From assembly GCA_023444045.1 (NCBI GenBank), contig JAEZRQ010000006.1, forward strand, positions 29,533-93,532: a stretch of 64,000 nt of DNA. The letters are read 5' to 3'. This DNA comes from Candidatus Parcubacteria bacterium (lineage in GTDB: Bacteria > Patescibacteriota > Patescibacteriia > Patescibacteriales > UBA12465). The number at the start of each line of letters is the position of its first letter. The stretch's first letter is position 1. The notes beneath the pieces were generated by a model that saw nothing but the letters and a program-made list of their open reading frames with translations, made no database searches and was not told the origin of the DNA. This document shows positions 3,914 to 50,560 of the stretch, piece after piece. The translations under genes were made by a program, and so were the position numbers.

Positions 3914-3918
3914 ATTTT

Positions 3919-15600: not shown

Positions 15601-16677
15601 ATTACCCGGAGTGAAAAAATCAGTATTCCCGATGAACTAGTCAAAGAAAAAATTAGTGTGAGCAAAGATTTTCATCTGGAAGAAGAACGTCGGCTATTTT
15701 ATGTCGCGATTACCCGGGCTAAAGAAGAATTATTTATTACTGGCGCTAAAGATTATGGTGGTGCCCGCGAGAAAAAACCATCACCTTTTGTAGCGGAAAT
15801 GGGTTTAAATATTACCGAGGTAAGCGGTGACGAAAACTTTATTAATAAGTTAGAGCTTTTAAGAGACTTAGAAAGATTAAATCAGGGTGAGCCGGAAAAA
15901 ACAGAGCAGCTGGTGTTACCAGAAAAATTTTCTTTTTCCCAGTTAGCCGCTTTTTCAACTTGCCCCTTACAATATAAATTTGCTTTTGTTTTAAAGATTC
16001 CCGCACCAAGCGATAAAGCTTCTTTGATTTTTGGTCGAGTGCTGCACAATGTTTTACATGATTTTCTAGAACCACTAGAAGTGGGCGGACTTCAGGAAAG
16101 TTTATTTACTAAGAAAGAAGTAAAACTAGAGGAGAAAAAGTTATTGGCGCTTTATGATGAAAGGTGGCAAGCTGATGGTTATGAGGATAAAGAAGAGCGA
16201 GAGAAATATTATCAAAAAGGCAAAAAGATACTACGAGCTTTTTTTGATAATTTAAAGAACGAAGATGTTCCTAACATTCTTTATCTTGAGAAAAACTTTA
16301 CTTTTAAAATTGGCGGCGGGATAATTAAGGGGGCGATTGATCGAGTTGACCGTTTACCAGACGGTACTTTGGAAATTATTGACTATAAGACCGGTAACCC
16401 TAAAGAAAAACTTGAGCTAAAGGATAAAAAACAATTAATTCTTTATAAAATATTTTTGGAAGAATTTTTACAAATTAAGGTTAGTAAGTTAAGTTATTAT
16501 TATTTAGAGGGAACCTATAAAACCTCTTTTGAGGCTAAAGAAAAAGAAGTAGAAAAATTAAGGGCAGAGGTTTTAGAGGAAATCAATGAAATTAAAAAAG
16601 GGAATTTTCCTCCTAATCCAACCGAAATGTGCAAATTCTGTGATTTTCGCAGTATTTGCCAGTGGCGGTTAAAATAA
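12691..16677 (+). CDS. UvrD/PcrA/AddA-type SF1 helicase fused to a C-terminal Cas4/AddB-like Fe-S PD-(D/E)XK nuclease; contains an intein
   Basis: Walker A AGAGTGKT, motif II VDEFQDTN, motif III GDDDQ|intein|SIYKFRGA. C-terminal Cys cluster (STCPLQYKF ... CKFCDFRSIC) with an EIIDYK-type nuclease motif. Confidence 0.85.
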   Translation: MIDELLQKLNKAQQEAVTHENGPLLIVAGAGTGKTTVLINRLAYLVLEKGLSTEEILLLTFTEKSAAELEERADKLLPYGYVDLWIHTFHGFCERILRERALDIGLSADFKLLSATEQWILIKKNLAKFDLDYYKPLGNPTKFISELLRHFSRLKDENISADDYLKTVKESNEEDEMELKRLQELASAYKTYNQLLIENNYLDFGDLIVYTIKLFRDRPNILHLYQKQFKHIMVDEFQDTNWAQYELVKMLAQPNNNLTVVGDDDQCLPGSALIETDKKIKKIKDIKVGDEVVTAVGKGYLSYSKVNLINKTKKKCRLLTFNLKSGKKIMVTDNHKLFSFTPRISNKTYFYVYLMLKQELGWRMGMTNDLATRLRLERGADSIIPVGCYKSLEEARFHEVLFSLKYGIPTSCFQERGGIMDKKNWSEKLYQELKVDDAVRLLAQDKNIDLNYPPYCLQAVKRGSKSRIIISLEMCCRRYRSKYDKNGFLDHPQVLHSLNLETSDTEAITKLKKLNLPLTAAKKGKRVRVTSTDLVHLGEVAKKIQQQVGGFIEVKMNIAKDKTKYLKSLVIPAKNIFPGMLLPIMSDKGLVYEEIISRSEKDKLETVYDLEVDRTHNFIANGVAVHNSIYKFRGASISNIMQFKDDYQTAKELVLVDNYRSRQEILDYSYEFIKHNNPNRLEEKLKINKKLKSGANFENKETAAVKYLNFDRGEEEVSFVASQISDLHQQTGANWFDFAILVRANDTADAYVKELNRLGAPNQFVSLKGLYFKPIILDCLAYLRLLDNYHESSALFRVLNMEPFKVSHLDIITINKFAKRKVWSLFEALKNIEAIPGISKLAKENTKKLLTLIETHSKLVAESSPSKIFLRFVYDSGMLSAYDFDRDQELFSYLNQFYQKIKKFEETLPSAKLQDFMQLMDLELEAGEVGALRLDFADNDTVKIMTVHAAKGLEFKYVFLVNIVDKKFPTITRSEKISIPDELVKEKISVSKDFHLEEERRLFYVAITRAKEELFITGAKDYGGAREKKPSPFVAEMGLNITEVSGDENFINKLELLRDLERLNQGEPEKTEQLVLPEKFSFSQLAAFSTCPLQYKFAFVLKIPAPSDKASLIFGRVLHNVLHDFLEPLEVGGLQESLFTKKEVKLEEKKLLALYDERWQADGYEDKEEREKYYQKGKKILRAFFDNLKNEDVPNILYLEKNFTFKIGGGIIKGAIDRVDRLPDGTLEIIDYKTGNPKEKLELKDKKQLILYKIFLEEFLQIKVSKLSYYYLEGTYKTSFEAKEKEVEKLRAEVLEEINEIKKGNFPPNPTEMCKFCDFRSICQWRLK
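13489..14571 (+). mobile_element. intein, 361 aa, in helicase motif III, probably with a degenerate endonuclease domain
   Basis: Starts with Cys (CLPGSALIET, block A), has block B TDNH, ends VYDLEVDRTHNFIANGVAVHN followed by Ser (+1). Excising it restores the contiguous GDDDQSIYKFRGA helicase motif. In frame with the host ORF. Confidence 0.8.
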
Positions 16678-19555: not shown

Positions 19556-20122
19556 ATGTTCAAAAAGGCTTTTTTATTTTTGCTGGAATTTGTTAAATTA
19601 TCAGCAATCGCCCTGCTTATTATCATTCCAGTGCGTTATTTTTTAATTCAGCCATTTTATGTTAAGGGGGCCTCAATGACGCCAACCTTTCATGATTATG
19701 AATATTTAATTATTGATGAGTTAAGCTATCGTTTTGATGAACCAAAGCGCGGAGAAGTGGTGGTGTTTAGATATCCCAAGGATCCTCAGGAGCATTTTAT
19801 TAAAAGAGTGATTGGTCTACCTGGTGAAGAGGTGCAAATAAAAAATGGTGCTGTTTATATTTATAATCAAGACAATCCAGACGGACTTATTTTAAATGAA
19901 CCTTATTTGGCCGCCGGAGAAGTGACGACAGCTAATAACGAGAATAAAATTTTACTAAAAGACCGTGAATATTTTGTTCTTGGTGATAACCGTAAAGCTT
20001 CCCAGGACTCCCGTATTTTTGGTCCGGTAAATCGTAGTTTTATCACTGGCAAAGTTTGGTTGCGCGGTTTCCCGATCAGTAAAGCCCAGGTTTTTAATGA
20101 AAATAATTTACCAAAATATTAA
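19556..20122 (+). CDS. lepB: signal peptidase I
   Basis: N-terminal TM, catalytic Ser in GASMTPT, Lys in KRVIGLPGE, and VLGDNR...SQDSR S26 boxes. Confidence 0.85.
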   Translation: MFKKAFLFLLEFVKLSAIALLIIIPVRYFLIQPFYVKGASMTPTFHDYEYLIIDELSYRFDEPKRGEVVVFRYPKDPQEHFIKRVIGLPGEEVQIKNGAVYIYNQDNPDGLILNEPYLAAGEVTTANNENKILLKDREYFVLGDNRKASQDSRIFGPVNRSFITGKVWLRGFPISKAQVFNENNLPKY

Positions 20123-23271: not shown

Positions 23272-23280
23272 TGGTATAAT
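23272..23280 (+). promoter_or_regulatory. extended -10 promoter element (TGgTATAAT) for the giant-protein gene
   Basis: TGGTATAAT about 37 nt upstream of ATG 23317, in the divergent rel/giant-gene intergenic region. The -35 is weak. Confidence 0.3.
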
Positions 23281-23316: not shown

Positions 23317-26010
23317 ATGAGAAGAAGACTGGCCTCTTTTTTGAAAAGATTTGCCTTGCCATTTTTATTAATTTTGGCGTTTTTTCTATTGTTTAATAGC
23401 GTTTCTGCAGCTACAGTTGATGTGGGAATAGACCAGGTAGATAGTAATATTGGTCTAGAGAATAATAGCCCAACTACAATTGTCATTAGAATTATTCAAA
23501 TAATTTTAGGACTACTGGGAATAATTTCGGTTGTCATTGTTATCTATGGAGGGTTTTTATGGATGACTTCTAGTGGCAGTGAAGAAAAAATTTCTAAAGC
23601 TAAGAGATTGTTAAAAAATGCTGTCATTGGTTTGATTATTATTTTATCTTCTTGGGGGATTGTTTATTTTGTTTTAACCAAATTACTAGGTATTAGTGAT
23701 TCAGTCAGTTTGTTTAGATCTCCTAGCAATGTTAGTAATTCTAATAATTTAAGTTTAGGAGCTTTAGGTTCTTGTTCGCTGGAATCTGTCTATCCCAGTC
23801 CCGGTGCTACAGATGTTCCTAGAAATTCCACTATCTTAATAACTGCTAAAGAAGCTTTTCAGCTAGACACTGTTTGTCTTAATAAAGATACTAAAAGGCC
23901 TTGTGCTTGTGATAATACCGCTAATTGCAATTTATTAAATTTTGAAAATATTCAAATATACCAAACAAATGAGGGCAATTCCTGTTCCCCTGGCAACTGC
24001 GGAACTAATTTAAAAGAGGTGGAAGTCTCTGTTCCGGCTGGCAATAAAACTATTGTTTTAAAGCCGCTAGTTAATCTAGGGGCCGCTAGTGGAAAAGTAG
24101 AGTATGGAGTTAAGCTAACAAATGATCTTAAAAAATTTGGTGGCGAAGCTCTTTTTTCGTCTTGTTCATCTGACTATTTAGAATGGTTTTTTGAAGTTAA
24201 TAATACTTTAGATCTTACCCCACCCCAAGTAACCTCTGGCGGATTTTTTCCTCAAGTGGACAATGCGGCTGATTTAGTAAAGATAAATTCCGAGGCTAAG
24301 GCCGCTTCAGGGAAAATTGTTATTACCAGTTGCCCAAATACCTACACCCCCGCCAGTTTAAGTAATGTTACCAAGATTGGGAATTCGGTTGACGCTGAAG
24401 TTTTAGTAAATCCAAATTATTCAGGAATCATTACGGATTTTAAAGTTGAGGTTGCTGGTAATAAAATGCGTCTTTTTAGTGGCAACAGTCTCTTGGATTC
24501 GGTAGACATTGTTAATAATGAGGCTAATTTTTCTAGCTATTTTTTGGTCAAGTTATCTAGTGTTAGTTCGGGTAATTCCTGGAATGTTATTGTTAAGCCC
24601 GTTCAGGCGGCTGATACTTTAGCAGTGGGCTCAAATTCTTACATCTTCGCTGACCGTGAAAAAAATGCCAACAATGAAATCGCTGTTCCTGATAATTGTT
24701 CACCAACTGCTATGGCTACTAATATTGAAATTGCTTTAAGTGGCCACAAGGAGATTAATGTTGTAAGTTCGGGTGGGACTTTGACGCTATTTGCTAAACA
24801 AACTGGCATATCTGGTAATAGTTTGCCACTTTCTTCCAGTGCCAAAGGATTGGAATTACAACCATTTTCTGGTGGGGCCGAAAAAAGTGATTCTTATGAA
24901 ATAAGGGGCGTGCAGGATAAACCAATGAATTCAATCATTCAAATTAATTTTAATGAACCGATTAATCCAATGGTTCTTTCTGGTACGTCTGATGAATTAA
25001 GTAATTTTGTTCAGATAGTTAATGCTAATGCTTCTGCTAAATCTGCTGGCGAGTCTTGTTCTTTAGACAGTGATTGTTTGTCTTATAGCTGCCAAGCTAC
25101 TAAATGCGCTGGTAATTATATTAGCGGCACCTTTTCTTTAGATAACTCTTACCAAACGGCGGAATTTGTTTCCAATAAAGAATGTGGTGTTAATAGTTGT
25201 GGGGAGAAAATGTATTGTCTACCAGCTAGTAGCCACTTAGCTGTTAGACTTAAGGCGGCTACTTTAAAGTCCTGTAGCACCGTTTCTGATTGCAGCGCTT
25301 TAGCTCCTTATTCAGAATGTGTTAGCAGTGTTTGCCATAACAGTAGTACGGGTGAGAACTATCCGGTAGCTAATTCTTTACAGTTAGACGGTATCGTTGA
25401 CTTAGCCTTTAACTCTTTAGACGGTAATCGCGATGGACTAGCTGATGGACCAATAATAAAAGTTTACCCTTACTTTGTAGAGGGGGATGCTAATTTAGAA
25501 AAAAGAGATGGTTTTGAATTCTCTTTCTTTATTAGTAATCAACTAAACTTAACACCACCAAGCATTGCCTTAACCTCTCCAAGACTCGAGGAAGATGGGG
25601 TAATGCTCTCAGCTCCAGTAGTAATTGATTTTAATGACTTAATGATGCAAAGCACTTTAAAATCCGGCAGCCTTTCTATGAGTAATGAACTAGTAAAGAC
25701 TGAGCATAAGTTAATTAATATAAAAAGCTCAGTTGATAAGCCTTTAGGTTATTGGATAGAAAGCGAGAACAAAGAAATTGGTACTCTTGATGGAATTCCT
25801 GATTATACTTCAGCCAGAATTTTACATTCAGATTTTTTTGAATCAGTTACTTATATTTCCCAAATTGGTTCAGGAGTTAAAAATATTTATCAAAATTGTT
25901 TTAAACCAAGTATTGGTCCGGGTTGTTTTAATCTAAGCGAAGCTAATCCTTCTTGCTGTTTTGGTGAGGGAACAAATGCCTTAGATGCTAACGGCAACTG
26001 TGCCAATTAA
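23317..26010 (+). CDS. large secreted surface protein (897 aa): signal peptide + two-helix membrane-hairpin module + Ig-like (SbsA/Big-type) domains + Cys-rich region
   Basis: Sec signal (…NSVSA-ATV). Two hydrophobic helices flanking GGFLWMTSSGSEEKISKAK. Big-like motifs (VYPSPGATDVPRNSTILITAKEAF; PMNSIIQINFNEPINPMVL). Paired Cys in the C-terminal half. Confidence 0.7.
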   Translation: MRRRLASFLKRFALPFLLILAFFLLFNSVSAATVDVGIDQVDSNIGLENNSPTTIVIRIIQIILGLLGIISVVIVIYGGFLWMTSSGSEEKISKAKRLLKNAVIGLIIILSSWGIVYFVLTKLLGISDSVSLFRSPSNVSNSNNLSLGALGSCSLESVYPSPGATDVPRNSTILITAKEAFQLDTVCLNKDTKRPCACDNTANCNLLNFENIQIYQTNEGNSCSPGNCGTNLKEVEVSVPAGNKTIVLKPLVNLGAASGKVEYGVKLTNDLKKFGGEALFSSCSSDYLEWFFEVNNTLDLTPPQVTSGGFFPQVDNAADLVKINSEAKAASGKIVITSCPNTYTPASLSNVTKIGNSVDAEVLVNPNYSGIITDFKVEVAGNKMRLFSGNSLLDSVDIVNNEANFSSYFLVKLSSVSSGNSWNVIVKPVQAADTLAVGSNSYIFADREKNANNEIAVPDNCSPTAMATNIEIALSGHKEINVVSSGGTLTLFAKQTGISGNSLPLSSSAKGLELQPFSGGAEKSDSYEIRGVQDKPMNSIIQINFNEPINPMVLSGTSDELSNFVQIVNANASAKSAGESCSLDSDCLSYSCQATKCAGNYISGTFSLDNSYQTAEFVSNKECGVNSCGEKMYCLPASSHLAVRLKAATLKSCSTVSDCSALAPYSECVSSVCHNSSTGENYPVANSLQLDGIVDLAFNSLDGNRDGLADGPIIKVYPYFVEGDANLEKRDGFEFSFFISNQLNLTPPSIALTSPRLEEDGVMLSAPVVIDFNDLMMQSTLKSGSLSMSNELVKTEHKLINIKSSVDKPLGYWIESENKEIGTLDGIPDYTSARILHSDFFESVTYISQIGSGVKNIYQNCFKPSIGPGCFNLSEANPSCCFGEGTNALDANGNCAN

Positions 26011-26030
26011 TCGATAAATTTTGTTTTTAT

Positions 26031-29000
26031 ATGTTTAAAAAAAATATCAAATTATATAGTTTAATATCTATTCTTGGGGTAGTATTTTTATTTTCTGCTA
26101 AAGCTGTTTTGGGTGTTGATGCTGGCATTGATACTGTTGGTAGTGATTTGTCTCTATCTGATAAAAGTCCAATCCAAATTGCCACCAGCATTATTAATGT
26201 AATCATGAGCATTCTTGGACTGTTAGCCGTTGCTTTTGTGTTGTGGGGTGGTTTTATCTGGATGACTTCAAATGGGAGTGAAGAAAAAATTGCTCAAGCT
26301 AAAAAAATTCTTAGAAATGGTGGTATTGGTTTGGTAATTATTTTATCTGCCTGGGGAATTACTTATTTTGTCTTAACTAAGTTATTAGATTCTGTTGGTA
26401 CCGGTAACGGTGGTTTTGATGGCTGTACTAGTGGCGCGACATCTTCTTGCGGTTGTGGTGGTGAGCAAACCTGCACTAATGGCAGTTGGGGACCATGTCT
26501 TGGCTCTTCTTGTCAGCCACTTATTGACGGACCAACCAGCTGTGACGGAAAACCGGCGGTTGACAAGTGTCAACCAGATGCTGGTTTGTGTGGGGATGAT
26601 TATTTCTGTAATGAAAATAGTTGTCTGTGCGAGCCAAAAGCTAGCTTAGGAGAATCTTGTAACGCTAATTCAAGTGGAACTTGTTCGGCTGATGATAGCT
26701 TGTGCGGTCCTTATTTAAAATGTGACCCCAATGATTGTGTTTGTGTTGGCCCTCCGGTAATTACCGGCGTTAGTCCAGCAGGAGGATTCTGTGTTAACGA
26801 TCAAAACAGGGGCTGTAACACCGATGCTGATTGTTTAGGTGGAGCAAAGTGTGATGTTATTACTCCCAATGGTGGCAGTAATAATTTTCTTACTATCTAT
26901 GGTTATAATTTTGGGACAGCTACTAACCTGTTTGAAAATATTTTAACTAATATTGATTTTGAAAAGGGGGCAGAAGGGGCTCTGCCAAATGATTGGACCG
27001 CCTCTAATCAAAAGAATTCTAAAGTAGGAATTTCTAAGAAAGAAGCTCGCTCAGGGGAGCAGAGTGTTTTGATTCATCAGGATTCTAACATAGTCTATCC
27101 AGGCACCTGCACTAAGAGTATTTGTCAAAATTTATCTTCTTGTTCTTGGAGTGATGCTAATAAAACTTGTACTTTCCTGCAGGGCGACGATGCACATAGA
27201 CAAGCGCCAGCAGTTTATAGTGAAGGACAGAGTTTAGTTTGGGGAAACACTAATAGGACTATGTGGGCCAAACTGACATATAATTTAGCCCCTCTTGACT
27301 TTCAGGTTGGCGATACTTATTCAATTCAATTTTATTATAAAGGAAAAAACACAGCCAACGTTTCAGTGGGAATTGGCTATAATTTAGGCTGGACATCTCA
27401 GTGTATTGGTTATTCTTCATATGGAGCTTTAAAACCTGGTTACAGTTGGAATGGGTCAGCTGTTACTCCAACTCCCCCTGAAGGAGAAGATCCTTGTGCT
27501 CCTGCTTATGGGAAAACTTGTGCTGATCAACAAAATACTTGTTGTGTTAATGCCCCAAATCAAACTAAGTGTTATCAGTTTTTAAACATGACGGCTATTC
27601 CTAAGGGGAATGTTGATGATTGGACCCTTTATTCTTATACCTTTCAATATACTCCAGAGATGGATTCTTGGTTAAATAGCGCTGGGAAAAAGGCGATTGA
27701 AATTGGAATGTCAATTGGATATAACTCTACTCTAACAGGAACAGATTTATATATTGATGATTTTACCGTTACTAAAATTTTAAATACCGGACAAATAACT
27801 TTTTTGGGAGCAGACCAGAGTCAACAACAATTAGCTAATTTTCCAAAACTTTTAAATCCCAATTGTGTTAGCTATTGGACTGATCGGCAAATTACTATTG
27901 CGGTGCCATCTGGTGCGGCTACTGGTCCAATTCAGATAAAAAGGGAAGGTGAATTTGCTGATAATATTGACACCACCAACAATGAAGTTGGCCCAATTAT
28001 TCCAGATTTTATTAAAAACGACATATCTAGACCAAGTTTGTGCCAAATCAGCCCTAGTCAGGGATTATTAGGTGAGAAGGTTGATTATCAGGGAATTAAT
28101 TTAAAAAATGGCGTGGCTTACTTTGGAGAATATTCCAACGCTTACAGAGGAATAAACTCTATTTTTACTGCTGATAATTTATCGGGCCAAACTATGGCGC
28201 CAAATATAGTTCCTGGTAAAACTACTACTTTTATTGAAAGAACCGCGGCCGGGATTAATCAAAAAAGTAATGCTTTGATGTTTGTTAAAGAAAGAGAGGC
28301 TGAGGCTGGTCCTTATATTTCCTCATTTTATCCAAAGACAGGTGCCGCTGGTCAATACGTTACCATCCTAGGTGGTGGTTTTGGTAATCTCCGTGGTAGC
28401 AGACAGGTATTTTTTGGAGATAAAGAAGCCTCATACTCTTTCCCAGAAGTTTGTTCAAATTCAGTTTGGAGTGATAGTCAAATCATTGTTAAAGTGCCTG
28501 ATGGTTTAAACCCTGGTAATTATCAAATTAAAGTGAATTTAGGGGATAAAACAGTAAATACTGATTTATTAGCCCCAAATCATAATTTTAAATATGACCC
28601 CAGTCAAACTCTAAAAACTAGTTTATGTAAAATAGACCCAAGTAGGGGGCAGGTTGGTGATAAAGTTACTCTGTGGGGTGAATATTTTGGTAATCAAGAA
28701 ACAGATGCTCTAGTAGTTTTTAACCGTGGTGTTAATATTACTTCAAAAATTACTAAAGATGGTTTAGCTGATAAAGTTGAAACAATTGTTCCGGTAGATG
28801 CTAGTAAAAATCCTCCAGTTAGCGCTATCACTGGCCCTGTTAAGGTAATGAAAAATAGTGAGTGGGGCAATGAACTTAATTTTACAGTTGGTAAATGTTC
28901 TTCTAATAATGAATGTAGCGCTTCTAGTCCAGTTTGTTGTCCTGGGAATACATATAAATCTGGTTCCTGTGCGGCCTCAACAATGGCTTGTTATTTTGAT

Positions 29001-32000
29001 GTCCCTAATTCTGTCTATGAAACTAAATTTGATACAACCATAGGTTCTGTTAACGTGGAAGATTTTAGTAGTTGTATTGAAATGGCTACTTTCTATAACG
29101 GTTGCCAGACCGGACAATTCTGTCCTAATTCTCCAGGTAAGTGTTCCCCCTTTAATCCAATTGGCGTTATGGAAGTTGTAAGTGCTTGTGGAGCTAATGG
29201 CTTAGAGTGTGGTAGTATTAAATCTTGTGAGTTAGATGATAAAACCACGCCACGTATTATGTACTGGGCGGGCAAGGTTAATCAGCACTGGGATTTAGCT
29301 AGTGGTAGTTTTGTGACTGATCCTGACGGCTCTTCTGGCGCTGGTTTAAATAAACTGTCATATTGTCAGAAGTTTTATCCAGAGACAGAAAGTGTGGTCG
29401 CTTATAAAAAAGAGACCAGTAATACTTGGAAAAATGCGGGTAATTTAGATAATTTTACTGGCACCGCCCTTTCTTATCGTTGTGTCTTAAAAGGCGAAAC
29501 CGTGTGTTCTTATGACAAGAATAATGATAATTGTCAGATTAAAGATTCTCTACTGCAAAATAAAACTTGTCTTTTAGAAAAGGAATTAGAATACTCCTTA
29601 GCGGGGCAAAACTATAAAGGCAGTCTAAGTTGTCGCTCTTATCAAGATAAAGTTAGTGGTCAAAGTTATTTTGCTAAACACCTCAAGGTTTCCACTTCTT
29701 GTCCTCAAGGCTGGTTAAATGTTGGTGGTGGTTACTGTATTGATGCTGCCTTAACTAAATGTGACCCTTGTGCTGATGGTTTCAAGTGTGTGGATAATAA
29801 TAATGATGATTTTGGAATTTGTGAGTCTGATAAAATTTGCCCCGCCTCTTCTTATTGTGGTATTAATCCTAATGATTCCAAGCAGCTAGCTTGTTTAAAG
29901 GATCAGGATAAGAGTTGTGATTGTTGTTGTGAAATTGGTCAAGATACCAGAGATTGTTGCGCTCCGCTTACATGTGCTGGTACTTGTGGTAGTGACACTA
30001 CTAATGATGGCAAGGGTTATGGTAGTTGTTCTGGTTGCGCTGATGTTCCTGGTGATCAAAAAATAAAAGATGCCGCCTGCAATTGTAGTACTACTAGCGG
30101 TAAGTTCTGTGATATCACTAAACCTGGTGGTATCTGTGTTGATTGTGCAGCGCTTGATGAAGCCTCTTGTTCACTTCATGCTACTCAATGCTGCTTTGAT
30201 CAAATGAAAGGTATTTGTCAGGGAGGTGACGGAACACAATTACCTGGTGGTAAATGCGCTTATTATGATTGCGATGCTGAAAATCAAACTTGTAACCAAA
30301 ATCCTTTAGCCACAGGACGATTCACTTCGCCCGATGTTTGTGAAACCTCTTGTAAAGATAATCCAACAACAGTTTGCGATTTACCAGCAAGTCAAAATCC
30401 TCAGAGCTGTTCGGCTTTAGATAACTGCTGTTTTGATGATAAAAATAAAAAATGTCTTTCCGGTCTAGACGCTATTAATGTTTCTGGCGTTAAATATTGT
30501 GCTTATTATGATTGTGATTTTAGCCAGTTAGACGGTGCCTCGCTTTATAAGTGTAGCGCTGCTAAAATTTCGGGAAATTATTTGAGCCTGGCTAATTGTC
30601 AAGATGCTTGTGGTAATACTAATACTAATTTACCAGGTTCAAGCTGTCAGTCTGACACAGCTGATGTTTGTGATGTCAGTGCTTGTTCGGGAGATTACTC
30701 TTGTTTAAGTGAATCCGGAAATCCTCCTTCCACATCAGGCTGTGGTACTTGCTGCTGTGACCCTAAAAATGAGAACTCTTGTTCTGGTACAGATAATTTG
30801 ACCTGTACACCTAATGTGGGATCTTGCAGTGGAAATGATCGCGGTTTGTGTTGTGGATGTACTTCCGATAGTCAATGTGGTATTGCCTCAGCTGGTTGTG
30901 GGACAGATACTTGTTGTCATGGCAGACCACAAATAGTAAAAACTTCACCAGTAAATGGTCAAGAAAAGGTGTGCCGCAATAGCCAAATTGTTATTAATTT
31001 CAACGAAGAAATGGACGCTACTAGCTTGGGTAATAATATTCTTCTAATTGAAGAAAAAGAATATGGCAAGGAGCTGTGTAATCTTGGTACAGCAGTTTCT
31101 TTAGAGAATACTAACCCTAATAGAAATTTCTTGGCTACTATTTATAGAAAAATAGCACTGATCTTTAATAGAATATTTAACAAGCAAGCTTATCAAGTCT
31201 TAGCTTCTATGCCTTCAGAAGACAAATTATATTGTATTATTCCCGGTACCGTTGATACTCAAACAGAATATGCTCCTAACGGGGTAACTTCAACAGTTGC
31301 TTATATTAAACCGAACAGTGTCCTTAATGCTAACAACAATTATTTTGTAGTTGTTAAAGGTGATGAAAATATGGATAGTAATTCTGGAATTATGAGTCTG
31401 CAAAAAATTGGTTTTGATGGTTCTGCTGCTAAACCGCTAGGAGACACAACTCTTCTTACTGGGGCAGAATTTAACAAAGTTTCCTTTAAAAATTCTTATG
31501 TCTTTAGTTTTAAGACTATGGACGATAATAGTGGTAAGGATGGTTTATGTACAATTGATAAAGTTGAGGTTAAGCCCAGCTCTTTCTTAATTAAAACAGA
31601 TGAAAATAATCCTTCAGATGATAATCCTTCAGATAATAACTTTGATAAAATAAATGATAATGACAGGTTGCTGACAGCTATGGCATATAGCGCTGATAAC
31701 CAACTTATTCAGCCAGTCACGGGGTACTATTGGACTTTTAATTGGAGCATTGATGATACTTCAGTGGCTCAAAAAATTGACAAATCGGGCTTAAAAAATA
31801 ATCAGTTGTTAGTAAGATCGGTCACTGGAGTAACTGATAAGAGTACCAAAATTTCTGCCAAAGTTAATATGAACAATTTCAAAACATCAAGCGGTTGTTC
31901 TGTAAATTGTGTTTGCAATGATAATAATTGTGATAACAGATGCTGTAACGCTAATTTTGAGGGGGAAAATGCTACTAGTGAATCAACTCTTTATGTTTTC

Positions 32001-33221
32001 TTATGCGCTAATCCTTGGCCGGCAGAAAAGAATGGTATTTGGAGTCCTTGGTATGATACCGGGGAATGTCGTGATGCTAATCAGAATATTATTCCTTGTG
32101 CTAACTATAATTATAAGTTCTACTATTGTCGTGATGCCGGAGAACCTGGTACTTTTGATGATTTACCAGTTGTTTCTGACCCGGCCTTGATTCTTGGTCC
32201 TTCAAGTAATTTAATCTGTAGCACAGATGGTCTTCCTTGCAGTACACAAGGGGCAGTTTGCGGTAACAATGGAACCTGTGTCTGGAGCGTGTTAAAAGAA
32301 TCATACTTCTTTAGAGAAGCCGCTCCTCAAGCTGGGCGTATTAACAAAATACTTAGTACTGGTGTTGGCGGAGAGATAGCATTAGGCTGGAATTCACCTA
32401 TTAACACAGAAGCACCAATCAGCTCTTTTAAAGTTTATTATGGGCTTAGCTCTGGTGGTTCAACTTTATTAAAAACATTATCCTTGGCTGAAGCTAATTG
32501 TAAAACGGAGAATAATGAGCTGAATTGTTCTTATATATTAAAGGATTTGGTGAATGGACAAAAATATTATTTTAGAGTTTCATCTTTAACCGAGAAGAAA
32601 ACTGAGAGCCCACTTTCTGGCGGCATGGAGATAATTCCCACTGATACCACTCCACCAGATAGACCAGCAAGATTAAAAATAGTTGGTTCCGGTGATGATT
32701 TATTGGTTACCTGGTATCCTGATACTAAGAATGACACTTTATATTATCGCTTATTTCATGGCATATTCCCTGGAAAAATAATGGATTCGTTTGATTCTCA
32801 AGAAAAGGCTACTAGTTTAACTCTTAAACAGAGTGATTATCGCGCAGGCGATCATTACTTTTCTTTAGCAGCTATTGATTCTTATGGAAATATCAGTGAT
32901 AAGTCTAGTGAAATTAAGGTGACTATTCCTAATACCCCAACCAATGTAACTGTTGCTGATAATAGGTATTATTTAACCGTTTCTTGGAATAAGAATAATA
33001 ATCCAGGAAATACTAAGTATGCAGTTTTTATGAGTAAAGATGGTGGCGGTGAAATACGTGCTAATGATCTTAATCAGGAGCTAATTGATCAATCATCCTT
33101 TAATATTGATTCCAAAAAATATGAAAATGGCACTTATTATATTTCTGTTGAGGCCTATGATCACCAAAATTTTAAGAGTAAAAGATCGGAATCATTTAAA
33201 ATTGATATAAATAAAAATTAA
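26031..33221 (+). CDS. giant secreted surface protein (2396 aa): same N-terminal module as upstream gene, jelly-roll/CBM-like domain, several IPT/TIG-like domains, about 600-aa extremely Cys-rich region, SbsA-Ig-like and FN3-like C-terminal domains
   Basis: N-terminus paralogous to 23317 gene (GGFIWMTSNGSEEKIAQAK; WGITYFVLTKLL). IPT/TIG-like PVITGVSPAGG..., ISSFYPKTGAAGQYVTILGGGFG, CKIDPSRGQVGDKVTLWGEYFG. FN3-like PDRPARLKIVGSGDDLLVTW. Confidence 0.75.
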   Translation: MFKKNIKLYSLISILGVVFLFSAKAVLGVDAGIDTVGSDLSLSDKSPIQIATSIINVIMSILGLLAVAFVLWGGFIWMTSNGSEEKIAQAKKILRNGGIGLVIILSAWGITYFVLTKLLDSVGTGNGGFDGCTSGATSSCGCGGEQTCTNGSWGPCLGSSCQPLIDGPTSCDGKPAVDKCQPDAGLCGDDYFCNENSCLCEPKASLGESCNANSSGTCSADDSLCGPYLKCDPNDCVCVGPPVITGVSPAGGFCVNDQNRGCNTDADCLGGAKCDVITPNGGSNNFLTIYGYNFGTATNLFENILTNIDFEKGAEGALPNDWTASNQKNSKVGISKKEARSGEQSVLIHQDSNIVYPGTCTKSICQNLSSCSWSDANKTCTFLQGDDAHRQAPAVYSEGQSLVWGNTNRTMWAKLTYNLAPLDFQVGDTYSIQFYYKGKNTANVSVGIGYNLGWTSQCIGYSSYGALKPGYSWNGSAVTPTPPEGEDPCAPAYGKTCADQQNTCCVNAPNQTKCYQFLNMTAIPKGNVDDWTLYSYTFQYTPEMDSWLNSAGKKAIEIGMSIGYNSTLTGTDLYIDDFTVTKILNTGQITFLGADQSQQQLANFPKLLNPNCVSYWTDRQITIAVPSGAATGPIQIKREGEFADNIDTTNNEVGPIIPDFIKNDISRPSLCQISPSQGLLGEKVDYQGINLKNGVAYFGEYSNAYRGINSIFTADNLSGQTMAPNIVPGKTTTFIERTAAGINQKSNALMFVKEREAEAGPYISSFYPKTGAAGQYVTILGGGFGNLRGSRQVFFGDKEASYSFPEVCSNSVWSDSQIIVKVPDGLNPGNYQIKVNLGDKTVNTDLLAPNHNFKYDPSQTLKTSLCKIDPSRGQVGDKVTLWGEYFGNQETDALVVFNRGVNITSKITKDGLADKVETIVPVDASKNPPVSAITGPVKVMKNSEWGNELNFTVGKCSSNNECSASSPVCCPGNTYKSGSCAASTMACYFDVPNSVYETKFDTTIGSVNVEDFSSCIEMATFYNGCQTGQFCPNSPGKCSPFNPIGVMEVVSACGANGLECGSIKSCELDDKTTPRIMYWAGKVNQHWDLASGSFVTDPDGSSGAGLNKLSYCQKFYPETESVVAYKKETSNTWKNAGNLDNFTGTALSYRCVLKGETVCSYDKNNDNCQIKDSLLQNKTCLLEKELEYSLAGQNYKGSLSCRSYQDKVSGQSYFAKHLKVSTSCPQGWLNVGGGYCIDAALTKCDPCADGFKCVDNNNDDFGICESDKICPASSYCGINPNDSKQLACLKDQDKSCDCCCEIGQDTRDCCAPLTCAGTCGSDTTNDGKGYGSCSGCADVPGDQKIKDAACNCSTTSGKFCDITKPGGICVDCAALDEASCSLHATQCCFDQMKGICQGGDGTQLPGGKCAYYDCDAENQTCNQNPLATGRFTSPDVCETSCKDNPTTVCDLPASQNPQSCSALDNCCFDDKNKKCLSGLDAINVSGVKYCAYYDCDFSQLDGASLYKCSAAKISGNYLSLANCQDACGNTNTNLPGSSCQSDTADVCDVSACSGDYSCLSESGNPPSTSGCGTCCCDPKNENSCSGTDNLTCTPNVGSCSGNDRGLCCGCTSDSQCGIASAGCGTDTCCHGRPQIVKTSPVNGQEKVCRNSQIVINFNEEMDATSLGNNILLIEEKEYGKELCNLGTAVSLENTNPNRNFLATIYRKIALIFNRIFNKQAYQVLASMPSEDKLYCIIPGTVDTQTEYAPNGVTSTVAYIKPNSVLNANNNYFVVVKGDENMDSNSGIMSLQKIGFDGSAAKPLGDTTLLTGAEFNKVSFKNSYVFSFKTMDDNSGKDGLCTIDKVEVKPSSFLIKTDENNPSDDNPSDNNFDKINDNDRLLTAMAYSADNQLIQPVTGYYWTFNWSIDDTSVAQKIDKSGLKNNQLLVRSVTGVTDKSTKISAKVNMNNFKTSSGCSVNCVCNDNNCDNRCCNANFEGENATSESTLYVFLCANPWPAEKNGIWSPWYDTGECRDANQNIIPCANYNYKFYYCRDAGEPGTFDDLPVVSDPALILGPSSNLICSTDGLPCSTQGAVCGNNGTCVWSVLKESYFFREAAPQAGRINKILSTGVGGEIALGWNSPINTEAPISSFKVYYGLSSGGSTLLKTLSLAEANCKTENNELNCSYILKDLVNGQKYYFRVSSLTEKKTESPLSGGMEIIPTDTTPPDRPARLKIVGSGDDLLVTWYPDTKNDTLYYRLFHGIFPGKIMDSFDSQEKATSLTLKQSDYRAGDHYFSLAAIDSYGNISDKSSEIKVTIPNTPTNVTVADNRYYLTVSWNKNNNPGNTKYAVFMSKDGGGEIRANDLNQELIDQSSFNIDSKKYENGTYYISVEAYDHQNFKSKRSESFKIDINKN

Positions 33222-33238: not shown

Positions 33239-36200
33239 ATGAGGGCTACAAAAATAAAATGGCAGAAATGGGGAATATATCTCTTATTTCTATTCATTAT
33301 TGCAATACTAAGCTTTCAGGCTAGAGCAACGACTCAGTCTGATGCGATTGCTGTTAGAGTTCTACCTAATATTAATCATGACAGTATTGATGTTTGGTAC
33401 AAAAATCAGGGTTATAAAGGCTCTCCTCAAAGCTTAACGGTTGATGGTTATGAGGCGATTAGAGACGGCCGAACAGTTTTTGTCAATGCTGCTAATTTAG
33501 ATACAGTCAATAAAAAGTTATATACCAACGTTTACCTGATTTCCTATAATCAAGATTCGGAAGTCAAAACTCTAGATGTATTAGGGCAATTAATTTCTCA
33601 TTGGAAATTTAACAATAATATTAATACCACCGGTTCTTGTTCAATCTCTAACTTTAATTGTAGTGCTGATACCGATTGTCCCAGTGGTTATATCTGCTCT
33701 AATTCTAATTCCATGGGCTCTGATCATTCATCAGCTTCTAATAAAGGAAAGTGCATTCTAGAAAAAGGAAAAACTTGTTTACTTGATAGTGATTGTCCAG
33801 TGAATTTATTTTGTGATAGCTTAAAAGCGCGTACCATAAGAGATGTTAGAAGATTAGGTGATATGAATCAATTGAAAGAAGCTATTGAAAGGTTTAAAAA
33901 TAATAATAATACTTATCCAACCCTATTAACAGGAACTTATTTAAGCGGCGGGACGCTATCTGTTTGGCCAAGCTGGAAAGATACTTTATCAACTCAACTT
34001 GGATTAAATAAAATTATTTCTGATCCTATTAATTCTTTAGGCTATTGCGAGGGGTATGATCCTAAAACTTGTTGGGATGAAACAAAAAAATCTTTCGTTA
34101 ATTCCGATTTAGTTTTACCTTATGGCAGCTACGCTTTAGCTTACAAGTCCTCACCAAACGGCATCTCTTATAGTTTGTGTTCTACTTTTGAGACTAAAGA
34201 TTTGGGTTATGATACAGCTGGTGGGAGATTTGCCAAAGAGAATTGTTTAGAAAGTATTTTTTATAGCGGCAATGTTTCAAATACGGCTCCTAAAGTAATC
34301 GGGTCATTCACTCAAGGGCAAACAAGTAAGGAGTTTAATGGTTATATTAGAGCCATTGATGCTGAAGGTGATAGTATTTCTTGGAATCTTGGAGTAACTT
34401 CACCTAGTTCTTGGGTAAACAGTGGGTGGCAAGTTGGCCCAAATCTAATCCCTACATTAAGAGACACTGATAACCCTAATCAAAAGCAAATCTATCACCC
34501 CACAACAGGAAGGGCTGGTAAGTACGAGATGTTGTTAACTTTAACAGATAGTCGTGGAGCAGTTAGTACTAGCACAATTATTCTTGATATTAGTGCTGTA
34601 GCTAAGCCAAGGATAGAAGCTGATAATGCTGATTACTTTGTTGATCCAATAAATCCATTAAAATATACTTTTTATTTAGAGGGAGAGAACTCTGTGCCAA
34701 CTTATAATATCACTCCAGCTAACCCTAGTCATGCCTCTGCTAAATTAGCTGATTTTGCTACTATGACTAGCAGTCAAACATCTGTCGGTTTAAATCGGGT
34801 TAGAGTAGATCTTTCTTTTAATGTCCTGACTTCGGTTAATATACCAGAGAATATTTCTATTCCTTTTAAAATAACTGCTACTGCCGCTGGAGTTTCGTCT
34901 ACTAAAGAGGTGACTATTAATTTTAGAATTGAAAAACCGCTGTTAAATTTTGATTGTGATTTACTTGCTCGTAAGGGTAAGAGTTATCCGTTAAATGGTA
35001 ATTGTTTTTTAGGCAGAACTAAGAGTGGTAATTTAAACATTAACTATTCAGTGAGCGGGGTAAATGGAATTTCAGTTCAATATGGTGGGCAAGATTCTTC
35101 TGGTTCAAAAGATGCTTTCTTAAGAGGTTTTATCAGTGATACTGGTACTAAAAATATAACTGTCAGAGCAGAAAATGATTATGGCGCTTTCTCTGAAAAA
35201 ACATTTCCTTTAACAGTTAACACTTTTTGTGGTGATGGTATCTTACAGCGACCAAATAGTGAGGGCAGAGGTGGCCTTTATAATGATGGCATGGAAGAAT
35301 GTGATATTAAAGCTGGGGTTACTGATAAAATTAGTACCTCTTCCGCATTGCAATATGCTTGTAATAGTGGCAGTAATACCCCATTTCCAATAGTTGATAA
35401 TAATAGCTGTATTTTTAAACCGGCTGATAAGGGGGGCGGCTTTTGTGGTGATGGTGTTTGTCAGTTTAAAATTGAGGGTGGGGTAATGATGGAAAATTGT
35501 TGGAATTGTTCACAAGATTGTGGTCAATGTTTAGCAACAATTATCTCTAAGGCTGATGATGAACACGCTACTTATTTAAATAGTGAGCCTCTCTACTCTG
35601 GCACTCAAGGTGCTACTCAAAGAATGCTGGTGCCTGGAAAAAATATTTTTACCTTTGCTGCTTATAATAGTCAAGATAATGACTATGGGGTGGCTTTTAA
35701 AATAAAAATTGGTCCAACTTCAGCTAAGTTAAATGCTGATGGTTTTGACTCTAGTCATGGATTCTTTGATATTGAAAATAGCTTTGCGCAAATTGATTCC
35801 TCCAGCGGTCTTCTAAAATGTGTTGCTTTAAAAGATGAGGAAGCTAAAACAAACTTTCAAAGTGATGGGTCTTATAATTGGACTCAGCTTGGTTATAGTA
35901 AGTTATGGCCAAAAGCAAAAGTTAATACTAAAAAATTATCATTTTTAGGCAGTCCATATATTTGGGCAGCAGATGGTAATGGTAAAAGTGAAAATATTTG
36001 GTGCCGTTTAGTCTTTGATTATAGTAATTATAACACCGAAGTATGCCAACCGGACTGTAGTGGTAAAAAATGTGGCTCAGATGGTTGTGGTGGAGTATGT
36101 GGCACCTGTTCTGATGATAAAGATTGTTCTTCTGATGGAAAGTGTTTGTCAAAATGTGTGCCTAATTGTGTAGGAAAATGTGGCGGTGATGATGGCTGTG

Positions 36201-36637
36201 GAGGAACCTGCAAGAGCTTTTGTATATTGCCGCTTACTTGTGGTGGTAGCGGGATAACTAATGTTTGCGGTTTAGCCTCAGAAAACACTAACAATCAAAC
36301 TTGCACCCCCGATTGTGTGGGTAAGTGTGGCGGACCGGATGGTTGTGGTGGAACTTGTGTAAACACTTGCTGCTCAGGATATGTTTGCTCAAATAGCGTT
36401 AAATGTAATCCCGTTGCTTCAGGGGTTGAGACTGAAAGAACTGGGATGTGTTATTCAAATTCTGATTGTCCGAGTGATTCTTGCTATGATAATTTATGCC
36501 GTTCCGATGGTCTGACTGAGTCAACAAAATGTTGTATTGGTGTTTGTAAGCCAAGCTCTTTGGACACTGGAGGTGTTGGTGGTGGCAGCGGTAACTATCG
36601 TAGTTATTATGAGAACGACTCCCTTGAGAGAAACTAG
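33239..36637 (+). CDS. large secreted Cys-rich protein (1132 aa) with CGDG...EECD repeats and three tandem C-x-PDC-x-GK-CGG-x-DGCGG-x-C repeats
   Basis: Sec signal (FQARA-TTQ). FCGDGILQRP...MEECD and FCGDGVCQF... (myxococcal-type Cys repeat pattern). C-terminal CQPDCSGKKCGSDGCGGVCGTC / CVPNCVGKCGGDDGCGGTC / CTPDCVGKCGGPDGCGGTC. Confidence 0.7.
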   Translation: MRATKIKWQKWGIYLLFLFIIAILSFQARATTQSDAIAVRVLPNINHDSIDVWYKNQGYKGSPQSLTVDGYEAIRDGRTVFVNAANLDTVNKKLYTNVYLISYNQDSEVKTLDVLGQLISHWKFNNNINTTGSCSISNFNCSADTDCPSGYICSNSNSMGSDHSSASNKGKCILEKGKTCLLDSDCPVNLFCDSLKARTIRDVRRLGDMNQLKEAIERFKNNNNTYPTLLTGTYLSGGTLSVWPSWKDTLSTQLGLNKIISDPINSLGYCEGYDPKTCWDETKKSFVNSDLVLPYGSYALAYKSSPNGISYSLCSTFETKDLGYDTAGGRFAKENCLESIFYSGNVSNTAPKVIGSFTQGQTSKEFNGYIRAIDAEGDSISWNLGVTSPSSWVNSGWQVGPNLIPTLRDTDNPNQKQIYHPTTGRAGKYEMLLTLTDSRGAVSTSTIILDISAVAKPRIEADNADYFVDPINPLKYTFYLEGENSVPTYNITPANPSHASAKLADFATMTSSQTSVGLNRVRVDLSFNVLTSVNIPENISIPFKITATAAGVSSTKEVTINFRIEKPLLNFDCDLLARKGKSYPLNGNCFLGRTKSGNLNINYSVSGVNGISVQYGGQDSSGSKDAFLRGFISDTGTKNITVRAENDYGAFSEKTFPLTVNTFCGDGILQRPNSEGRGGLYNDGMEECDIKAGVTDKISTSSALQYACNSGSNTPFPIVDNNSCIFKPADKGGGFCGDGVCQFKIEGGVMMENCWNCSQDCGQCLATIISKADDEHATYLNSEPLYSGTQGATQRMLVPGKNIFTFAAYNSQDNDYGVAFKIKIGPTSAKLNADGFDSSHGFFDIENSFAQIDSSSGLLKCVALKDEEAKTNFQSDGSYNWTQLGYSKLWPKAKVNTKKLSFLGSPYIWAADGNGKSENIWCRLVFDYSNYNTEVCQPDCSGKKCGSDGCGGVCGTCSDDKDCSSDGKCLSKCVPNCVGKCGGDDGCGGTCKSFCILPLTCGGSGITNVCGLASENTNNQTCTPDCVGKCGGPDGCGGTCVNTCCSGYVCSNSVKCNPVASGVETERTGMCYSNSDCPSDSCYDNLCRSDGLTESTKCCIGVCKPSSLDTGGVGGGSGNYRSYYENDSLERN

Positions 36638-36926: not shown

Positions 36927-37700
36927 ATGTTTAATGATCTAGATCAAAACAAAGGAGTTGCTCCACAAACTACGCCAGTTGATGATATTTTTGCTGATAC
37001 TGACAAAAGCAGTGAAGAGAAGAAAATTTCCGGCTATTACAACACATCAGGAGCTGGTCTTTCTCAATCAGAAATAGAGGCTCAAAAAATTGGTTTAGCC
37101 GCTTCTCAGGGGCCAGCAGTTTCTAATAAGGGGAAAACCCTGAAGATTGTTTTGTTGGTTGTTTTAACAATTTTAGTAATTAGTTTAGGGGTGGTGGTAT
37201 ATTTTAAATTTCTTGCTAATCCGGTGACAACTGAGATTGAGGAGCCAATTAACACTAACCAAATTACAACTCAAGCAACATCTCAGCAGCAAACTCCAGA
37301 AGTGATAGAACCGACTGTGCCACTTGAAAATGATATTACTACTACGACTAATGAGTTAACTGCAACATCAACAACCTCTACTCCGGCAGTGGTTGAGGTA
37401 TTAGATACTGACGGCGATGGTTTGTCCGATGAAGAAGAAATGATTTTAGGCACAGACTCTAATTTAAAGGATTCTGACGGTGATGGTCTGTCAGACTTTG
37501 AAGAGATTAAAACCTATAGTACTAATCCAAATAAAGTAGATTCAGATGAGGATGGTCTCTCTGATTATGAAGAGATTATGATTTATAAAACTGACCCAAA
37601 TAATTTAGATACTGATGGTGATAGTTATGGCGATGGTCAGGAAGTTGGTGGTGGTTATAATCCTTTAGGAGAAGGCAAGCTTCTTAGTATTGAAGATTAA
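36927..37700 (+). CDS. membrane-anchored protein with thrombospondin type-3-like Ca-binding repeats
   Basis: Central TM (IVLLVVLTILVISLGVVVYF). Four tandem D-x-D-G-D-G-L-S-D-x-E-E repeats (DTDGDGLSDEEE, DSDGDGLSDFEE, DSDEDGLSDYEE, DTDGDSYGDGQE). Confidence 0.6.
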   Translation: MFNDLDQNKGVAPQTTPVDDIFADTDKSSEEKKISGYYNTSGAGLSQSEIEAQKIGLAASQGPAVSNKGKTLKIVLLVVLTILVISLGVVVYFKFLANPVTTEIEEPINTNQITTQATSQQQTPEVIEPTVPLENDITTTTNELTATSTTSTPAVVEVLDTDGDGLSDEEEMILGTDSNLKDSDGDGLSDFEEIKTYSTNPNKVDSDEDGLSDYEEIMIYKTDPNNLDTDGDSYGDGQEVGGGYNPLGEGKLLSIED

Positions 37701-37702: not shown

Positions 37703-37900
37703 ATGGATTATTTAGGTGTAAAAAATAAAGTTAAAGCTGTAAATAATCAACGTCTTTCCAAAGCTGGTTCTAAGATATTTTTGGGGTTGCACGTAATGCC
37801 GCAAAAAAAAGAATCAAAAGATGTTCGTGTTTTTAGTTGGTTAACAGCTATTTTATTAATCTTAACTAGTTTGATTATTTTTTTAATGATTTATGTTTAA
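37703..37900 (+). CDS. small membrane protein
   Basis: 65 aa, C-terminal TM (WLTAILLILTSLIIFLMIYV). Tightly packed between paralogous TSP3 genes. Confidence 0.3.
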   Translation: MDYLGVKNKVKAVNNQRLSKAGSKIFLGLHVMPQKKESKDVRVFSWLTAILLILTSLIIFLMIYV

Positions 37901-50531: not shown

Positions 50532-50560
50532 TTTAAATATAAAAATTTAAGCATAAAAAT

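Follow-up and report, generated by a model that had tools for sequence, protein, structure and literature searches.

Two neighbouring genes for giant surface proteins that open with the same short module raise the question of what this module is, and what it does for proteins of such size. The genes, A and B, lie in a 64-kb stretch of a Patescibacteria chromosome (approximately 35% GC), which is referred to below, at its full length, as the window. Much of bacterial diversity may lie in the Patescibacteria, and every member in culture is attached to other microbes. Together with a third gene, C, A and B form a series of three long open reading frames (ORFs) on the same strand, with gaps of 20 nt between A and B and 17 nt between B and C. 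Gene A (23317..26010, + strand) encodes 897 aa, comprising a VirB2-type pilin hairpin and an Ig-like multidomain ectodomain (Pfam matches to PF18895 and Big_5). Gene B (26031..33221, +) encodes 2396 aa, in which the hairpin is followed by a Cys-rich ectodomain with Pfam matches to TIG, Big_5, and fn3. Both ORFs are as described in an earlier reading of the window (the original prediction), which had likened the shared module to VirB2/TrbC-type pilins and proposed it as an anchoring or sorting device for giant adhesins. Gene C (33239..36637, +) encodes a Cys-rich secreted protein of 1132 aa with its own signal peptide and no anchor; a single hydrophobic segment, at residues 8–32, could be detected by Kyte–Doolittle scan. 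The architecture found here is that of a pilin unit serving as the N-terminal module of giant surface proteins, found widely within a single class of Patescibacteria and present in the databases.

The shared module belongs to a pilin family

Both copies of the module scored above the Pfam gathering threshold of 26.6 bits for T4SS_pilin (PF18895), with 45.9 bits for A (residues 51–119) and 55.3 bits for B (residues 49–114), and the same family was matched by all 42 fused modules examined from relatives. By these profile matches, the module belongs to a family already known, that of the VirB2-like pilins of Patescibacteria, contrary to the earlier statement that no named family could be recognised with confidence. 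The original prediction had also named a match to a well-characterised family as a result that would refute it and, formally, the PF18895 match is such a result. The resemblance to VirB2/TrbC itself proved to be real homology. Against the TrbC/VirB2 model (PF04956), A reached 25.1 bits (E 2.1e-5), under the gathering threshold of 27.9, and B gave no match; of the two families that had been suggested for comparison, PF18895 took in both copies and PF04956 neither. PF04956 was matched at E<0.01 by 13 of the 42 fused modules of relatives (best E 6.1e-8), and these scores point to remote homology to TrbC/VirB2, not to membership. A further model, NF045849 (Mbov_0395 pilin-like proteins of Mycoplasma integrative and conjugative elements (ICEs); cut-off 40 bits), was matched by 42 of 42 fused modules. 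Here A scored 40.1 bits as the full protein and 44.5 bits as the module alone, B stayed under the cut-off with 36.7 bits, and the locus is a housekeeping one, not an ICE.

When aligned with free-standing pilins of 117–155 aa, the fused modules could be followed along their entire length, including the WMT(S/A)xGxxxKxxxAK loop. A and B nonetheless break with the small size by which pilins are recognised, at 897 and 2396 aa and with relatives of up to 4410 aa, and the hairpin does not make up the whole of the mature polypeptide. A search of PDB sequences with the module profile returned only spurious matches to glycine-receptor transmembrane segments, and structure searches with the hairpin by itself brought up no informative match, as is usual for a helical hairpin. 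The PF18895 family has been surveyed across 3,035 Patescibacteria genomes (PMC12102498), and VirB2-like pilins are essential in Ca. Southlakia epibionticum; experimental support for the function of PF18895 in Patescibacteria consists of gene essentiality in this one species (PMC10633639).

Other identities were considered for A and B. An assignment as type IV pilins was rejected: the leaders are AXA-type, followed by an acidic stretch and two helices, and no class III signal peptide is present. A leader of that class, short and basic with G then F/M and a conserved E5, marks type IV pilins together with a single N-terminal helix. Since A and B are not type IV pilins, the prepilin peptidase encoded in the window (44198..44986) would have other clients. 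Sortase (LPXTG) substrates and SLH S-layer proteins were likewise rejected, as neither protein has a hydrophobic segment past residue 126 or a Pfam match to SLH or Gram_pos_anchor; the C-termini read ...NGNCAN in A and ...KIDINKN in B.

Anatomy and membrane topology of the module

BLASTP comparison of the first 140 aa of A and B gave 60/112 identities (54%, E 8e-40), with homology confined to the first ~125 residues. The mature modules were 57% identical and the hairpins 61%, in keeping with the 'about 60%' reported before, and the motifs D-x-G-I-D-x-V, GGF(L/I)WMTS(S/N)GSEEKI(S/A)(K/Q)AK(R/K), and WGI(V/T)YFVLTKLL, quoted at the same time, were all present. Only two copies of the module were found in the window. 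A protein with TSP3 repeats (37893..38921) came up as a candidate third copy with E 0.002, but is single-pass and lacks the motif, and was rejected.

Kyte–Doolittle analysis gave three hydrophobic segments for each of A and B, all within the first 126 residues and none beyond (A, residues 5–38, 51–87, and 98–126; B hairpin, 47–80 and 97–119). The AlphaFold2 model of the A module, built from a 68-sequence alignment, consisted of a leader helix, a disordered acidic stretch, and helices at 52–84 and 89–129, with predicted local distance difference test (pLDDT) scores of ~88–93. The two hydrophobic helices and intervening loop postulated earlier are thus borne out by hydropathy and model alike.

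All coordinates in the following dissection are on the + strand. Residues 1–31 of A (23317..23409) form a predicted Sec-type signal peptide, with an RRR/K n-region, a hydrophobic core, and V-S-A followed by A; A31 is invariant among 59 A homologues. Judged by charge, residues 32–50 (23410..23466) form an acidic, presumably extracellular stretch, which contains D-x-G-I-D-x-V at residues 35–41 (30–36 in B). Conservation is low here (0.36), and only G37 of the motif is kept across relatives. Hydrophobic helix 1 (residues 51–78, 23467..23550), at which the PF18895 match begins, has a hydropathy maximum of 2.82. It is followed at residues 79–100 (23551..23616) by a conserved basic loop, GGFLWMTSSGSEEKISKAKRLLKN (conservation 0.67), which would face the cytoplasm in a membrane and the lumen in a pilus. 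Hydrophobic helix 2 (residues 101–124, 23617..23688; hydropathy 2.45, within the modelled helix 89–129) ends in WGIVYFVLTKLL, and the module gives way to a variable low-complexity linker at residues 125–148 (23689..23760), with pLDDT <50 for 125–143 and conservation of 0.25. Hydropathy and alignment to A place the signal peptide of B (A-K-A, then V) at residues 1–25 (26031..26105), and alignment and charge place its acidic extracellular stretch at residues 26–45 (26106..26165). The pilin hairpin of B occupies residues 46–119 (26166..26387), with helix 1 at 46–73, the loop GGFIWMTSNGSEEKIAQAKKILRN at 74–95, and helix 2 at 96–119, and a Gly-rich linker at residues 120–131 (26388..26423) lies ahead of the first cysteine. 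The AXA-type sites and the invariance of A31 suggest that the leaders are cleaved after A31 in A and after A25 in B.

For membrane topology, charges were surveyed in the 42 fused modules. The mature N-terminal stretch was net negative in 41 of them and the inter-helix loop net positive in 30, and the stretch past helix 2 was slightly acidic. With the positive-inside rule, this bias supports an N-out, loop-in, C-out hairpin, which is the known membrane topology of VirB2-type pilins. Proteins in which several hairpins follow a single signal peptide, separated by short linkers, imply in addition that each hairpin begins and ends on the same side of the membrane.

Distribution and synteny among relatives

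Homologues of A numbered 319, nearly all of 870–920 aa, 41–98% identical and all with PF18895; their annotations read 'pilin', 'Ig-like domain-containing', or 'hypothetical', and the closest named relatives of A come from Candidatus Falkowbacteria. A protein identical to A is encoded on a metagenomic scaffold of 542 kb (ENA ERZ28596294, LEMO22-1 scaffold_4). B orthologues range from 1670 to 4410 aa, with the module N-terminal in all. A profile search for the module was performed against 1.84 billion representative proteins (E<=1e-3) and gave 65,803 family members. The best 150 matches included 146 new proteins, of which 45 had a single N-terminal hairpin followed by 127–4265 further residues, 27 were free pilins, and 74 were tandem 'poly-pilins' with 2–17 hairpins. 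The ectodomains of these 45 single-hairpin fusions fell into two families only, A-like and B-like. No publication describing the pilin–ectodomain fusion was found in the literature searched, and the fusion is apparently undescribed; 'pilin' labels on proteins of 900 to 4400 aa mask a distinct architecture.

The 74 poly-pilins (P0129, P0133, P0137, and 71 others) have one signal peptide, short linkers between their 2–17 PF18895 hairpins, and no internal leaders. Arrays of separate pilin genes have been described, and concatenated pilins were not met with in the literature searched.

In six annotated loci, with A identity down to 42% and with one locus from a complete 977-kb Falkowbacteria genome, the gene order was signal peptidase I, HisRS, a small ORF, RelA/SpoT on the opposite strand, A, B, a C-like giant, and a TSP3 membrane protein. 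With one genome scanned per species, 79 loci were recovered, and in 47 of these the short and long fusions (A–B) stood as an adjacent pair. Neighbours of the pair were HisRS (43/47) and, at most 10 kb upstream, signal peptidase I (42/47), with RelA immediately upstream and divergent in 29 of the 45 loci where this could be judged. Named hosts of the pair include Falkowbacteria, Magasanikbacteria, and Kerfeldbacteria, all of the class ABY1. No Pfam family of type IV secretion systems (T4SSs) was found within 10 kb of the pair in the six annotated loci. From the fixed size of A and the synteny, the A–B–C locus is core and non-mobile in character. Many records of metagenome-assembled genomes that are clearly of Patescibacteria, with the same A–B locus and the same neighbours (L008–L012 and many others), are titled 'uncultured Gammaproteobacteria bacterium', apparently a placeholder or mislabel.

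Ectodomains and the third gene

Past the linker, residues 149–897 of A (23761..26007, +) form a beta-rich ectodomain of Ig-like sandwiches with conserved cysteines in the AlphaFold2 model (pLDDT ~90; mean of the full-length model 80.7). The top Foldseek matches of this ectodomain were to SbsC, an S-layer protein, and to alpha-2-macroglobulin, each of which is built as a chain of Ig-like domains. The ectodomain of B (residues 132–2396, 26424..33218, +) holds 136 cysteines (5.7%); A and C have 26 and 58 cysteines, respectively, and the modules none, with a Cys content of 2.9–5.7% in the ectodomains. Such Cys-rich ectodomains joined to Cys-free modules fit an extracytoplasmic location, and Patescibacteria are enriched in extracytoplasmic disulfide machinery, MdbA-like and VKOR (PMC6744442). 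A position of the A and B ectodomains outside the cell is strongly supported.

The two ectodomains had been called unrelated, and overall this holds; the exception is a shared Big_5-type Ig motif (best BLASTP E 0.022). That the A ectodomain is an enzyme was considered and rejected, as no catalytic family of Pfam or NCBIfam was matched and the fold matches were to Ig-chain proteins only. Because neither protein has another hydrophobic segment or a C-terminal sorting signal, there is strong support for the hairpin as the sole membrane-interacting element, and so the only anchor, of A and B. Of the original proposal, the anchoring or sorting role is compatible with all findings and remains the leading reading, while the name 'adhesin' is one that the Ig-like, TIG, and fn3 content suggests.

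Gene C could be tied to the pair through its arrangement in the 47 species. In 13 of them the B polypeptide carries the C-type region at its C-terminus, and the resulting proteins of 3300–4400 aa lack the C signal peptide; in 23 the C-type region is a separate downstream ORF, as in the window. The fusion of the C region to B in these 13 species places C in the same unit; there is strong support for C as a functional partner of B, and for A, B, and C as one conserved unit of the class ABY1.

Co-evolution of the two hairpins

Within the A family, the loop (residues 79–100), with a mean pairwise identity of 0.67, was the best conserved segment of the entire A protein, ahead of the helices (0.57–0.64), the ectodomain (0.50), and the linker (0.25). 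Across the 47 species with the pair, A and B modules of the same genome were 58.7% identical, as against 46.5% for A and B modules of different genomes; orthologous modules were 47.0% (A–A) and 48.6% (B–B) identical. The own-genome partner ranked best for 31 of 47 A modules and 24 of 47 B modules, and none of 100,000 partner permutations reached the observed sum (p<1e-5). When only variable columns were counted, the values were 49.1% for the same genome and 33.7% across genomes. The A and B hairpins co-evolve within genomes.

Two causes of this similarity were examined and set aside. Amino-acid composition accounts for only 0.15 of the 12-point same-genome excess. For recent gene conversion, the longest identical nucleotide runs were 14–23 nt and fourfold-site identity was only modestly raised; the absence of long identical DNA tracts argues against recent events.

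Free pilins and type IV secretion genes in the lineage

Free pilins of the family are 115–175 aa long, end 1–45 residues after helix 2, and occur in arrays of 2–11 genes. In one Falkowbacteria genome, an A-type fusion occurs alongside free pilins in an 8-gene array (loci L021 and L057). Of 25 Falkowbacteria drafts sampled, 22 are recorded as having VirB4, among them HGW-Falkowbacteria-2, which also carries the A orthologue P0103. In the survey of 3,035 Patescibacteria genomes, free pilins lie near virB4 in many classes, no T4SS adhesins are reported, a PrgB-like adhesin was not found, and VirB5 occurs only in rare Gram-negative-type systems (PMC12102498).

In three ABY1 species, arrays of 7–9 free PF18895 pilin genes lie directly 3' of a gene for a solute-binding protein (SBP_bac_1; L051, 3934..5352; L062, 6003..7403; L086, 5699..7111). 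No virB4 was found beside free pilin arrays in the ABY1 loci inspected, where the neighbours were SBP_bac_1, SMC, RpoB, Wzy, and MFS. With solute-binding-protein genes as neighbours of the arrays, one may ask whether a T4SS is always the partner of these 'pilins'.

Other genes of the window

Upstream of A, a divergent relA/spoT gene is separated from it by a gap of 69 nt, which holds an extended -10-like element, TGnTATAAT (23272..23280, +), 36 nt 5' of the A start codon (ATG); this match to a consensus is given low weight. The signal peptidase I gene (S26; 19556..20122, +) is linked to the unit by synteny, and its product is a candidate for the processing of A, B, and C. Downstream of C, two single-pass membrane proteins with TSP3 calcium-binding repeats (TSP3_bac) are encoded at 36927..37700 and 37893..38921 (+). 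TSP3 proteins also lie 3' of C in the relatives' loci L002, L005, and L006, and they may be members of the A–B–C system.

A Pfam scan of the ORFs showed the window to be of housekeeping content, with gyrA, addA, ruvB, queA, clpP, secDF, ftsAZ, and nrd. Its sole T4SS-flavoured gene, 18 kb downstream of the pair, encodes a TraD/VirD4/HerA-like P-loop ATPase of 587 aa (51773..53536, +), a soluble protein that weakly matches type IV coupling proteins, bears a CxxC-x17-CxxC zinc ribbon at the C-terminus, and has no apparent membrane segment. No counterpart of this gene was present among 85 related loci.

The addA gene (12691..16677, +) encodes a UvrD-type helicase-nuclease of 1328 aa with matches to Hint (residues 265–347) and Intein_splicing (residues 420–627). 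The AddA orthologues in loci L002, L003, and L006 are shorter (1003–1014 aa) and lack both, from which an intein apparently lies inside the helicase domain of this copy. Two Wzy_C (O-antigen-ligase-like) membrane proteins, one with TPR repeats, are encoded at 9041..10315 and 42241..44193 (+), the latter followed by the type IV prepilin peptidase gene (44198..44986, +); the three represent a separate type IV pilus and glycan-attachment toolkit nearby. Genes for an anaerobic class III ribonucleotide reductase (NrdD and a radical-SAM activase, with NrdR) were found at 48465..51516 (+), and a second, B12-type ribonucleotide-reductase-like gene with its own ATP-cone at 61190..63490 (+).

A membrane anchor or a pilus subunit

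The explanation that we favour, at roughly even odds (a probability of about 0.5), is that the pilin hairpin has been exapted, stays in the membrane, and both anchors and nucleates a core hetero-oligomeric surface structure. A and B would be chimeras in which a complete VirB2-type pilin unit is joined by a flexible linker to a giant Ig- and disulfide-rich ectodomain. They would be inserted by the Sec system, and the leader would probably be cut off by signal peptidase I. The hairpin would then span the cytoplasmic membrane twice, its two ends on the outer side and its basic loop on the inner, as the charge pattern supports, and the ectodomain would be shown on the cell surface, held by the hairpin alone. 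The strong conservation of the loop and the co-evolution of the A and B hairpins of one genome suggest that these hairpins touch each other or one common membrane partner, and that the hairpin is probably more than a passive anchor. Such contacts would nucleate a surface complex of A, B, and secreted C, which may be a core ABY1 envelope structure: a fibril, a coat, or a host-contact organelle. Residence in the membrane is preferred because the locus is a housekeeping one, A and B come as a fixed, stoichiometric pair, the cargo is bulky, and the Ig chains resemble an S-layer protein. Several points weigh against this explanation. The A, B, and C families are known from sequence and prediction, and the topology and signal cleavage proposed here derive from hydropathy, charge, and AlphaFold2; that the hairpin stays in the membrane is argued from the size of the cargo and the gene neighbourhood; the co-evolution signal could stem from old gene conversion, repeated between these adjacent paralogues; and the conserved loop and near-identity to free pilins are equally expected if a T4SS extracts A and B into a pilus.

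Extraction of this kind would make A and B modular T4SS pilins, and we consider it possible and the main alternative. A platform of VirB4 and VirB6 would assemble the hairpins, as minor, decorating, or tip subunits, into a VirB2-type pilus, and the ectodomains would hang outside the filament as host-binding adhesins, supplying the missing adhesin or VirB5-like function. Solved conjugative pili have N- and C-termini outside and the loop lining the lumen (bioRxiv 10.64898/2025.12.18.695078), and a C-terminal cargo is therefore topologically allowed. The end-to-end match of the fused hairpins to free pilins, with the loop motif kept, and the loop as the most conserved A segment agree with such a role, and co-evolution of the hairpins is expected of subunits of one polymer or clients of one machine. 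The genomes provide further support, in that an A-type fusion and an 8-gene free pilin array occur together in one Falkowbacteria genome and VirB4 is recorded in 22/25 drafts, including the one with P0103; a PrgB-like adhesin and, outside the rare Gram-negative-type systems, VirB5 were not found in Patescibacteria (PMC12102498). Against this stand the gene neighbourhoods: no T4SS gene lies within 10 kb in the six annotated loci, the T4CP-like gene 18 kb off is absent from the 85 related loci, and the free pilin arrays inspected in ABY1 adjoin a solute-binding-protein gene, not virB4. A cargo of 760 to 4300 aa per subunit is, moreover, far beyond anything seen for VirB2-type pilins. To our knowledge, no T4SS pilus of Patescibacteria has been visualised. 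Filaments solved so far in Patescibacteria belong to a different, Ig-fold system, the 'novel pilus system in CPR' (candidate phyla radiation) of a recent preprint, whose Pam pilins are unrelated to A and B (bioRxiv 10.64898/2026.03.03.709456). The fuller claim that A and B are the first 'modular VirB2 pilins', with the chromosomal T4SS of Patescibacteria polymerising or capping its pilus with hairpins that bear giant adhesins, is possible, though less probable than not. If it were true, A, B, and C would be the host-contact tip or sheath of the conduit that episymbionts use on their hosts, the missing adhesin or VirB5-like component would be identified, and a conjugative-type pilus would be able to carry cargo hundreds of times larger than its subunit.

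A very improbable alternative is that the hairpin serves as a transient export device, from which, after translocation, a linker protease frees the ectodomain into the envelope or the medium and leaves a free pilin. RP4 TrbC and Ti VirB2 are indeed trimmed at the C-terminus prior to cyclisation, the A linker is disordered and variable, and C is secreted without an anchor, yet is part of the system. However, a conserved linker cleavage motif is absent across 59 A homologues and 42 modules, and no TraF-like cyclase was seen among the ORFs of the window in Pfam scans. A normal signal peptide, too, would suffice for export, and the retention of a two-helix unit with the best-conserved loop would go unexplained. 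The fusion might finally be an artefact, produced when a frameshift, an assembly error, or a wrong genetic code joins a small pilin gene to a giant one downstream, as free pilin genes are common and often tandem, and multi-hairpin database proteins resemble merged gene calls at first sight. This is excluded by conservation, the same unbroken fusion being found in 319 A homologues and in 47 independent species assemblies, complete genomes among them. The reading frames are open under code 11, and inside the poly-hairpin proteins, past the one signal peptide, no further start-like leader occurs.

For the function of the essential T4SS of Patescibacteria, and for host attachment, the A–B pair offers a concrete and testable candidate, whether as anchor of a core envelope or host-contact structure or as adhesin of a T4SS pilus. 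It may also illustrate a general principle for monoderms without sortase substrates, in which an N-out/C-out two-helix hairpin anchors very large ectodomains.

Comparison with known systems

The free Patescibacteria pilins of PF18895 have, like A and B, a signal peptide, an acidic N-terminus, a helix, a WMT-G-x-K-x-x-AK loop, and a second helix. They end 1–45 residues past helix 2, whereas A and B continue for 760 and 2265 residues, and they occur in arrays, often near virB4 (PMC12102498), whereas A–B is a fixed pair in a housekeeping locus. The TrbC/VirB2/TraA pilins (PF04956) also consist of a leader peptide and a two-helix hairpin with a short charged loop. They differ in their cyclisation or TraF/TraQ-type partners, for which there is no evidence in A and B, and none of the solved members has a large C-terminal domain. 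Characterised VirB2 homologues are small two-helix membrane proteins with N- and C-termini on the outside of the pilus (bioRxiv 10.64898/2025.12.18.695078). PrgF(B2) and other VirB2-like proteins of Gram-positive conjugative plasmids share with A and B the two-helix hairpin and a monoderm envelope, and their assembly on VirB6 has been proposed; unlike A and B, they are proteins of 50–150 aa, plasmid-borne and encoded beside virB6, for which no ectodomain fusion is reported (bioRxiv 10.64898/2025.12.18.695078).

The Mbov_0395 family (NF045849) is matched by the 42 fused modules, with A at the cut-off and B under it, and comes from hosts that are likewise wall-less or monoderm, but its model describes a small ICE protein of 80 positions, and the A–B locus lacks an ICE context. 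The modular type IV pilins PilB and PilC of Streptococcus sanguinis, with their grafted C-terminal modules, resemble A and B in plan, in that an N-terminal polymerisation or anchor module is followed by a functional module on the surface-exposed C-terminus. They belong to another pilin superfamily with other machinery, in which prepilin peptidase cuts a class III signal peptide, and they have only one N-terminal helix, in contrast to the AXA-type leader and two-helix hairpin of A and B. VirB5 tip proteins, PrgB-type adhesins, and 'extended VirB6' (PMC12857230) are candidates for a likeness in role, as large surface domains for target contact on parts of a T4SS. They show no sequence or fold relationship to A and B, and attachment by way of a pilin unit, as in A and B, is not described for them.

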